Of a DNA stretch of 64,000 bases, positions 18,991 to 42,943 are shown in pieces. This DNA comes from Leucoraja ocellata. Its lineage: Eukaryota. Where the stretch lies: contig JAWMAR010000049.1 in NCBI GenBank assembly GCA_036785375.1, positions 10,292,001 to 10,356,000 of the forward strand, read 5' to 3'. How positions within the stretch are numbered: the stretch's first letter is position 1; every line of letters starts with the position of its first letter. A program made the translations under genes and the position numbers. The notes under the pieces are model-generated. The model ran no database searches, had not been told where the DNA came from, and saw only the letters and a program-made list of their open reading frames with translations.

Positions 18991-19071
18991 TCAAAATCCA
19001 AACACTCCCCCAACTGTGGATGCAATGACGACCCCCAGCACCACACAGCATATAATGATCATGATCTTCTT
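18991..19071 (-). CDS. STX1A: Terminal exon 10b, canonical STX1 transmembrane domain and stop
   Basis: ctacag|AAG AAG ATC ATG ATC ATT ATA TGC TGT...TTT TGA; encodes KKIMIIICCVVLGVVIASTVGGVFGF*. Confidence 0.95.
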   Translation of the reverse strand, partial: KKIMIIICCVVLGVVIASTVGGVFGF

Positions 19072-24074: not shown

Positions 24075-24455
24075 GGGGATTTATCGCAGTCGCTGCCTTA
24101 AAAAGGCTGGCAATATCATCAAAGACCCGCACCATCCTGGCCACACACTCATCTCCCTGCTACCTTCAGGTAGAAGGTACAGGAGCCTGAAGACTGCAAC
24201 AACCAGGTTCAGGAATAGCTACTTCCCCACAACCATCAGGCTATTAAACCTGGCTTGGACAAAACTCTGATCATTAATAACCCATTATCTGTTATTTGCA
24301 CTTTATCAGTCTATTTATTCATGTGAGCATATGTTTATACAATGGTATATGGACACTGATCTGTTTTGGAGTAAATGTCTACTATGTTCTGTGTGCTGAA
24401 GCAAAGCAAGAATTTCATTGTCATATCAGGGAAACATGACAATAAACACATTTGA
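24075..24455 (+). mobile_element. Rex1/Babar-type LINE 3' end
   Basis: Translates RCLKKAGNIIKDPHHPGHTLISLLPSGRRYRSLKTATTRFRNSYFPTTIRLLN, followed by a GAATTTCATTGT..GACAATAAA tail. Confidence 0.85.
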
Positions 24456-25142: not shown

Positions 25143-25372
25143 TGTTTAGTTTAGGGACACAGGATGGAAACATGCCCTTTGGCCTGCTGAGTCCATGCTG
25201 ACCATTGATCACCCGTTCACACTAGTTTAATGTTTCCTTCTTTCTCATCCAAGCCCATACAGTTATAGGGAGAATGTGTAAACTCCACACTGACAGAACC
25301 CAAGGTTGGGATCGAACCCATGTCTCTGGCGCTGAGAGGCAGCAGGTCTTACTAGGTGCACCACTGTGCCGG
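25143..25372 (-). mobile_element. V-SINE
   Basis: tRNA-like head with GGTTCGATCC, partial V-domain and CTAAACTAAAC-like tail. Confidence 0.75.
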
Positions 25373-26160: not shown

Positions 26161-26238
26161 TTAACTGAGAGACACAGCCAAAGCAATGATGATAATCAAC
26201 AGTACTACTGCAATGCATATTCCTATAAAGATCATTTT
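26161..26238 (-). CDS. STX1A: Alternative terminal exon 10a encoding a second transmembrane anchor
   Basis: tgttttcttcccttcccacag|AAA ATG ATC TTT ATA GGA ATA TGC...CTC AGT TAA; phase 0; encodes KMIFIGICIAVVLLIIIIALAVSLS*. Not in the ORF track because it is too short. Confidence 0.82.
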   Translation of the reverse strand, partial: KMIFIGICIAVVLLIIIIALAVSLS

Positions 26239-26689
26239 CTGTGGGAAGGGAAGAAAACAGTTTGGTGAGGCTCAGCATGCAAATACGCACATCACACAAA
26301 GAAACTGCAGTAGCAACTAAAACATTCAAAATGTGATGCAAATTTCTGGCTGACAACTGGGCATATGTTACACACTGGAATAATACATTCAAAGTCATGA
26401 CAGGAGACCAAACATGTCCCCACATATCTATGGCTCAAGGTTGGATAATGTTGGATGGCCAATTGAATTATGAGATAAAACCATGGCAGCACATGTGATG
26501 GGACTGTGGCAGTGTGTTCAGAGCACTGTAGTCCCCACAGAGCATCTCAGATTTTTTTCCAATAAAGAACCTTTAGAATGAGGTCTTACGACGTTTACTT
26601 TCAGCATGAAGATTCAGACTGCTACTAGAGTGCTTGGGTGTCAAGTTAGGGAAAGTAGCTTTTAGTTAGGATGGAGTCCCATCTTGCTA

Positions 26690-32975: not shown

Positions 32976-33086
32976 CCGGCGCGCTTTACTCTGGTACTTA
33001 ACCGCCTTTTTTGTGTCAGACACTGCCCTCTCTACGTAGTCAACTGAGTGCTCGACGTTGTATTCGATCCTGTCTATCATCTCTCC
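32976..33086 (-). CDS. STX1A: Exon 9b: canonical STX1 C-half of the SNARE motif
   Basis: gcccag|GGA GAG ATG ATA...CGC CGG|gtgagt; 111 nt; encodes [37 protein letters not shown]. Confidence 0.97.
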
Positions 33087-33162
33087 CTGGGCATCGAGGA
33101 AAGAGCAGACACGCATGAAAGTAACAGAGGTGCTTCGGCGGCCATTCTCCCGAGTCACTTAC

Positions 33163-33273
33163 CCGCCGGCTGGTACTCTTAAAATTAACTGCTTTTTTTG
33201 TGTTCTCCTTCGCGTCGCCTATGTAATCCGTTGCATTAACAACGTTCCTCTCAATGCTGTTGACCACATCACC
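33163..33273 (-). CDS. STX1A: Alternative exon 9a: divergent, STX2-like C-half of the SNARE motif
   Basis: ttctccttctgtttcag|GGT GAT GTG...CGG CGG|gtaagt; 111 nt, phase 0-0, no stops; encodes [37 protein letters not shown]. Confidence 0.85.
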
Positions 33274-36192: not shown

Positions 36193-36330
36193 CTGGCTTT
36201 CCACCAGCATTGCCATGTCCATGAACATATCGTGCAGCTCGCGAATACAGTTCTCCAGTTTGATGATCTCATGATGTCGCGTTTCAATCTCATTTAGAGC
36301 CTGCTTCGTGATGTTGGAATCCATTATGAT
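36193..36330 (-). CDS. STX1A: STX1A exon 8 (N-half of SNARE motif, ending at zero-layer Gln)
   Basis: tctcttctcttctcttag|ATC ATA ATG GAT...AGC CAG|gtaaga; 138 nt; encodes [46 protein letters not shown]. Confidence 0.97.
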
Positions 36331-42869: not shown

Positions 42870-42943
42870 CCCTGATGTGAAGATAGCAGGATTCCCACTC
42901 TCCAGCATGTCTTCCAGCTCCTCATTTGTGGTCGTTCTTCCAG
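42870..42943 (-). CDS. STX1A: STX1A exon 7 (linker / start of H3)
   Basis: attctag|CT GGA AGA ACG ACC ACA AAT GAG...TCA GGG|gtaagt; 74 nt, phase 1 to 0; encodes (T)[24 protein letters not shown]. Confidence 0.96.

Follow-up and report, generated by a model that had tools for sequence, protein, structure and literature searches.

A putative alternative last exon of syntaxin-1A in Leucoraja ocellata, conserved across jawed fishes, encodes a second, STX2-like membrane anchor

The window analysed here, a stretch of 64,000 nucleotides from the ray Leucoraja ocellata, contains the 3' part of a syntaxin gene on the minus strand. The Habc region, the linker and exon 8 of this gene are nearest to syntaxin-1A, which identifies it as STX1A, and a separate intron-containing STX2-like locus is present on contig C281. 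The exons of the window are 89–100% identical, over the shared part, to the 'syntaxin-1A-like' protein of Narcine bancroftii, which itself matches the syntaxin-1A of the PDB with an E value of 1e-123. Exon 7, encoding the linker, lies at 42870..42943 (approximate ends), and the remaining 5' exons are located outside the window. Exon 8 (36193..36330) encodes the SNARE motif's N-terminal half, terminates in phase 0 at the zero-layer Gln, is included in all forms and is 100% identical to the Narcine record P0002 over 46 amino acids. It is followed by two tandem versions of exon 9, namely 9a (33163..33273) and 9b (32976..33086), each having 111 nt, a phase-0 end and a GT donor. Exon 9a is 84% identical to its Narcine counterpart and 9b does not differ from bird STX1A or from STX1B-type records, while the two share 16 of 37 residues with each other. 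The coding part of the canonical anchor exon of STX1A, 10b, with the cysteines C271/C272, is found at 18991..19071.

The intron between 9a and 9b (33087..33162) has only 76 nt and a branch-point-like TNAY near +43, which is perhaps too near the 9a donor for joint inclusion, so that a steric mutual exclusion of both exons is possible. Despite this short intron, both exons 9 are present in 15 of the 162 records classified among the matches listed (see below).

A second copy of the gene was found on contig C8, in which the coding exons 8, 9a, 9b, 10a and 10b are all identical and the surrounding DNA is about 98% identical, and which is likely to be the other haplotype. The identity of exon 10a between both copies is not significant alone, because only 78 nt are compared and the surroundings are about 98% identical as well. 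Exons 2 and 3 of STX1A are located at about 10,469,140 and 10,447,829 of contig C49, 92–113 kb past the end of the window, and the gene thus spans more than 150 kb.

Between the exons 9 and the canonical anchor exon lies the feature of interest, exon 10a, the coding part of which occupies 26161..26238 of the minus strand. Read from 26238 to 26161 it encodes KMIFIGICIAVVLLIIIIALAVSLS, a tail anchor of 25 amino acids terminated by a TAA stop. It sits 6.7 kb past the tandem exons 9a/9b and 7.1 kb ahead of 10b, and every joint is in phase 0. Its acceptor (26239..26270) is a CAG preceded by 18 pyrimidines in 20 positions, and no other AG occurs within these 32 nt. In contrast, the acceptor of 10b at 19071 has 9 pyrimidines in 20 positions; there, the pyrimidine run lies farther upstream, together with a branch-point-like site at -50. 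Exon 10a therefore has what is expected of the terminal exon of a tail-anchored Qa-SNARE, a canonical acceptor and phase 0 behind a SNARE-half exon, as had been proposed in a preliminary description of this DNA that was made from the sequence alone. That description had also placed a clean transmembrane anchor about 7 kb upstream of the canonical one, and indeed the distance from the 10a stop to the start of the canonical exon is 7,090 nt.

The encoded peptide has 4–5 basic residues at the junction, one hydrophobic helix and a stop after residue 25. The best mean Kyte-Doolittle hydropathy over 19 amino acids is 3.48 for 10a versus 2.83 for 10b, and the anchor helix contains one Gly in 10a versus four in 10b. 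For residue numbers we used the rat syntaxin numbering, which reproduces D231, R232, Y235, E238, V248, S249, K260 and C271/C272 on 9b/10b. Under this numbering 10a retains C271 and lacks C272, as was first described, whereas 10b has both. The junction resulting from 9a is TSRR|KM and that from 9b is KARR|KM. Only the former had been anticipated, and it holds for 9a joined to 10a; it is one of two junctions, because in 16 records from other fishes 10a follows 9b. Both exons 9 are able to join 10a in frame, given their 111 nt, their phase-0 ends and their GT donors.

Within the first 380 nt past the 10a stop no donor-like site was found. The first ATTAAA occurs at 25231, nearer than the first AATAAA (24314..24319, minus strand), which lies about 1.84 kb downstream and is a candidate poly(A) signal. 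That 10a brings its own 3' UTR, as was proposed initially, is thus inferred.

To identify homologs, the C-terminal 110 residues (150–259) of a 9a+10a protein were used for a search which yielded 1,473 proteins, of which the best 120 are listed. These best 120 and some members of their clusters gave 162 non-STX2 records that were classified; 18 STX2 records, one mite record and the records without the exon-8 motif were omitted. As the query is itself a 9a+10a protein, the record counts are biased toward this form. Among the 162 classified records, 69 carry 10a, in the combination 9a+10a in 47, 9b+10a in 16 and 9a+9b+10a in 6 of the matches listed. The canonical anchor is found as 9b+10b in 62, as 9a+9b+10b in 5 and as 9a+10b in only 2 of these 162, and 24 have no recognisable anchor or exon 9. 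A coupling of 9a with 10a is only suggested by these numbers, since they are query-biased and drawn from the best 120 of 1,473 proteins plus cluster members.

The carriers among the matches listed come from sharks, sturgeons, eels, tarpons, bony-tongues, herrings, carps (cyprinids), catfishes, percomorphs and the coelacanth, and include Huso, Acipenser, Latimeria, Anguilla and Megalops. In the Narcine RefSeq models XP_069766522.1 and XP_069766519.1, 9a is joined to a tail that is identical to 10a in 22 of 25 residues, and in the Scyliorhinus model GCB59909.1 10a follows 9a+9b, so that the hydrophobic frame is conserved in chondrichthyan orthologs, with which an alignment had been recommended. 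Other annotated carriers are Latimeria XP_005986912.1 and Clarias XP_053342142.1/XP_053342144.1, and in several fishes the 10a form is the first-listed NCBI isoform. From elasmobranchs to teleosts and the coelacanth the open frame, the length, Cys8 and the stop position are kept, and K1, C8, L20 and L24 are invariant in 15 ungapped copies of 25 amino acids. In addition, three proteins encoded on Logan contigs of 1.2–1.6 kb (P0031, P0033 and P0178, all teleost-type) run across the exon joints into a 10a tail. These contigs should represent spliced sequence, because they would be too short if the introns were as in other vertebrates. The isoform is thus known from automatic gene models and from the three short contigs, all of other fishes, which supports the alternative terminal transmembrane exon that had been postulated. 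A search of sequencing runs listed no RNA run with this sequence; five contig sets of two other organisms, possibly derived from RNA, had 0.24–0.32 of the words in common with it, which speaks neither for nor against the splicing.

In carps and minnows (P0054, P0059, P0174 and other cyprinids) the normally invariant 9b is strongly diverged and 9a+10a is often the first-listed isoform; cyprinid STX1A looks as if it had shifted toward the proximal module.

No 10a was found in the 55 bird and frog STX1A records among the matches listed of a word-seeded search, all of which are 9b+10b. A tetrapod 9a+10a protein should outrank the 9b+10b records, as the coelacanth form does, and this result suggests, at the level of sequence records, that 10a was lost from tetrapod STX1A or is unannotated there.

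With respect to sequence, 10a is closest to the tail of STX2B. The STX2B tail cited in the preliminary description agrees letter for letter with the human one given in the supplement of PMC8373072, and hand counts against the human rows of that supplement gave 13 of 25 identical residues for STX2B but 6 for STX2A, 7 for STX3 10A and 6 for STX3 10B; the ray's own 10b shares 7. Frog STX2B-type tails share 14–16 of 25. Among 51 fetched tails, STX2B-type was the best-scoring group for 16 of 16 fish 10a copies and 10a the best-scoring group for 6 of 7 STX2B-type tails, and the mean identity of the 10a copies out of 25 residues was 12.3 to STX2B versus 5.4 to 2A, 4.8 to 3A and 6.2 to 10b types. Both tails have 25 amino acids, a Cys at position 8 and an LAxxLS-like end, in register. 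STX2A/STX2B and ray 10a/10b are also alike in being alternative last exons for different tail anchors, according to the STX2 entries of PMC8373072, while STX2 has one exon 9 and ray STX1A two. The rank differs as well. In human STX2 the 2A tail is proximal and the 2B tail distal (ENST00000392373 / ENST00000261653, supplement of PMC8373072), whereas 10a is the proximal anchor of ray STX1A. The sequence of 10a therefore points to STX2B and its position to the STX3A/STX2A tail, so that on present sequences the two disagree.

The position of 10a is that found in STX3. According to the STX3 descriptions in PMC11476516, PMC8263458 and PMC8373072, the isoforms STX3A and STX3B have exons 1–8 in common and are distinguished by alternative C-terminal exons, STX3A using the proximal ones and being widely expressed and STX3B using the distal ones in the retina. 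The human STX3 entry of PMC8373072 shows the order 9A-9B-10A-10B with two exons 9 of 37 codons and two anchor exons, exactly as in ray STX1A, and an intron between the exons 9 of 119 nt compared to 76 nt in the ray. Moreover, the neuronal, STX1-like form of STX3 is built from the distal pair, as is probably the case in ray STX1A. The two genes differ in that the host gene of the ray is STX1A and its main form the distal pair, and in that the proximal ray anchor, of 25 amino acids with a Cys, shares only the 7 residues mentioned above with human STX3 10A. A row for STX1A is absent from the human catalogue table in the supplement of PMC8373072; the text of that paper dates the events in STX2 and STX3 to Bilateria.

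What is directly established at this locus is the exon anatomy, the frame, the conservation in jawed fishes and an exon order, 9a-9b-10a-10b, that equals the one of human STX3. From this we consider it probable that 10a is a conserved alternative last exon of cartilaginous-fish STX1A encoding a second, STX2-like anchor, which is likely to be spliced mostly behind 9a and thereby combines the regulatory half of STX1A with a likely non-neuronal, STX2-like fusion end. A second anchor exon that is common to jawed fishes and STX2-like makes it likely that a further, less nerve-specific form is produced from the gene.

A competing view, to which we give somewhat less than an even chance, accepts the same exon and splicing and differs only in the orthology of 10a, which would be the positional homolog of STX3 10A and the STX2A tail, its likeness to STX2B being an ancestral state (Cys at 8) kept in slow copies. 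The proximal rank of 10a, shared with STX3 10A and the STX2A tail but not with the distal STX2B of human STX2 (PMC8373072 supplement), speaks in its favour, as does the STX2 locus of the ray itself, which has a single anchor exon with mixed features in 85 kb downstream (one 200-N stretch). In these 85 kb no 2B-type exon was found behind the STX2 anchor, a pattern search of the genome for such an exon gave 0 matches, and no 9b-type exon was found at that locus. The reciprocal best scores of the 10a and STX2B-type tails, their common length and their common LAxxLS-like end argue against it. Trees of such short exons (25 columns for the anchor exon, with paralog names of the representatives assigned by us from sequence) cannot settle whether 10a is an STX2B-type or an STX3A/STX2A-type exon, since AU tests rejected neither 10a with 2B (p-AU 0.38) nor 10a with the 2A/3A tails (p-AU 0.34). 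A union of the 2B and the neuronal 10b types gave a p-AU of 0.042 alone and 0.32 when two invertebrate tails were included. Consequently, the STX2B-like character that had been ascribed to 10a stands as a likeness of sequence, while shared descent with the STX2B exon is one possible explanation of it.

The anchor of the ray's STX2 (C281:1235615-1235695, minus strand) starts like 2B (KMF, Cys8) but ends like 2A/3A (IIGVTVG), and P0286 is similar; this type of STX2 anchor may be near the ancestral non-neuronal one. A divergent syntaxin, P0224, has an A-type exon 9 and a tail of 25 amino acids resembling 10a/2B without the Cys.

It appears improbable that 10a, though real, is a remnant of rare use, with low inclusion and no separate job in this animal. 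Six shark records with 9a stop without an anchor, several shark models (P0005–P0007, P0010–P0012) either run through the 9a donor or lack an anchor at their end, 9a diverges faster than 9b as judged from the end branches of the exon-9 tree, and 10a is apparently dispensable in tetrapods, all of which would fit such a remnant. Against this stand the constancy of frame, length, Cys8 and stop position from elasmobranchs to the coelacanth, an acceptor stronger than the canonical one and the first-listed rank of the 10a form in several fishes.

We regard as very improbable that 9a and 10a are younger than the split of the paralogs, having been born inside STX1A by local duplication or taken over from STX2 through gene conversion or retro-insertion. 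A clade of the STX1A exons 10a and 10b was not rejected at 0.05 (p-AU 0.08, 25 columns), and a processed syntaxin copy exists elsewhere in the genome. For exon 9, however, holding 9a together with 9b of STX1A was rejected (p-AU 0.0037), human STX3 has the identical four-exon order (PMC8373072 entry), and 9a and 10a are set apart by 9b and a 6.7-kb intron, unlike a retro-copy. In the exon-9 tree (37 columns), STX1A-9a is grouped with STX2, STX3-9A, STX4 and one unplaced record, separate from the 9b-type and invertebrate exons (92/93, not starred).

The invertebrate-type syntaxin-1 records P0208, P0259 and P0268 also have a second copy of exon 9; that of P0208 falls among the invertebrate exons, a hint of a duplication that took place independently.

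Finally, a chance hydrophobic frame behind a cryptic intronic acceptor, which the 24 strong-looking acceptors in the 9b–10b interval might suggest, has a negligible probability, as such a frame occurred in only 1 of 300 simulated introns, and this reading is refuted by the conservation of 10a with orthologs in dozens of fishes. The filter used (YAG, 15 or more pyrimidines in 20 positions, an ORF of 20–45 amino acids to the stop and a 19-residue hydropathy of at least 2.8; thresholds chosen after the exon had been seen) retained 10a as the sole match on both strands of the whole window; its one match in 360,000 strand-bases taken from other genomic loci was the STX2 paralog's own anchor exon.

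Returning to 10a as an alternative last exon for a second, STX2-like end, we propose a switch between a proximal and a distal last exon. The strong 10a acceptor, together with a poly(A) site in the 10a–10b interval (candidates 25231 and 24319), would end the message, and use of the weaker distal acceptor instead would give the synaptic 9b+10b form; neurons would skip 9a and 10a. By analogy with STX3A/STX3B, 9a+10a would serve general secretion outside conventional synapses and the distal pair would serve synapses.

Exon 9a keeps its hydrophobic layers, of which five of eight are identical and the remainder conservative. On the surface, 9a has N231, S232, R235, V238, K248 and E249, and position 260 is a Thr; 42 of 48 distinct 9a exons lack a Lys there. 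The 9a+10a form is thus without the basic residue 260 and without C272. In the mouse-neuron experiments described in PMC10957171, D231N, R232N, Y235R, E238V, V248K and S249E were tested as STX2-type changes, which raised spontaneous release and loosened the clamp, and D231N+R232N shrank the primed pool. Five of these six substitutions are present in 9a (N231, R235, V238, K248, E249), which has S instead of N at 232. In mouse neurons, too, palmitoylation of C271/C272 requires a basic residue at 260, and its loss lowers spontaneous fusion (PMC9183232). The ray form therefore resembles the STX1A-2(Cter) chimera and the C272V and K260 mutants of these two reports in having an STX1A backbone, an STX2-type C-terminal SNARE surface, a single Cys271 and a non-basic residue 260.

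From these data 9a+10a is predicted to be poorly palmitoylated (Thr260, one Cys), would be less tightly clamped by the neuronal machinery owing to the STX2-type surface of 9a, and may be sorted by its more hydrophobic, Gly-poor anchor. In the natural fish form SNARE half, linker and anchor are exchanged jointly, whereas the mouse constructs described in PMC10957171 and PMC9183232 alter each of them separately, and spontaneous release responds in opposite ways. The net effect of 9a+10a is unpredictable from the single changes, because an STX2-type surface raises and a loss of palmitoylation lowers spontaneous fusion.

Concerning its history, the two-module design would be older than the split of STX1A, STX2 and STX3, the proximal module having been lost in tetrapod STX1A. 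Beyond this, one may speculate, with considerable doubt, that before its duplication the vertebrate syntaxin-1/2/3 gene carried a pair of SNARE-half exons and three anchors in tandem (2A/3A-type, 2B/10a-type and neuronal CC-type). The first two of these anchors would have survived in STX2, the first and the last in STX3, the second and the last in fish STX1A, and the last alone in tetrapod STX1A. The 9a+10a form would then be a natural, 450-million-year-old STX1A/STX2 chimera. Three ancestral anchors with differing losses would reconcile the clash between the position and the sequence of 10a; against this history stands the single, mixed-looking anchor in 85 kb at the ray's own STX2. Between 9b and 10b of the ray's STX1A no third (2A/3A-type) anchor exon was found. 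If the three-anchor history were true, one gene would provide a clamped t-SNARE for synapses and a relaxed one for secretion, and the loss of 9a+10a would mark the point at which STX1A became neuron-dedicated.

Searches of the genome gave STX1A (two copies), STX2 and intronless STX11/19-like genes (on contigs C183 and C85, and twice on C125). STX1B, STX3 and an intron-containing STX4 were not found in these searches of the assembly, which may reflect an assembly gap or a limit of the search and is not evidence of loss. An intronless 3' part of an STX4-like syntaxin, reaching from the end of the linker to the anchor and resembling P0325, is located at C368:1470338-1470673 (plus strand); its SNARE half is two codons shorter and it is embedded in LINE-like sequence, and it is probably a partial processed pseudogene.

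In our survey of mostly freely accessible literature on this cassette and on syntaxin exon evolution, no study of the cassette in STX1A was found, and a prior description is possible; the word 'fish' is absent from PMC10957171. The isoform itself is already contained in the automatic, unreviewed annotations of many fishes, where 10a is joined to 9a or 9b, and its kind is known from the alternative C-termini of STX3A/3B and STX2A/2B. Exon 10a is real and old. It represents an evolutionary detail on a well-studied gene rather than a new mechanism, but it calls for caution, as fish models, stx1a antibodies and rescue constructs may address different proteins; the 10a tail, for instance, is the end of several teleost 'isoform X1' records. 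The switch known from STX3A/3B is probably not peculiar to STX3, since fish STX1A has the same cassette, and this cassette constitutes a natural test of which residues of the SNARE surface, the linker and the anchor make a syntaxin 'synaptic'.
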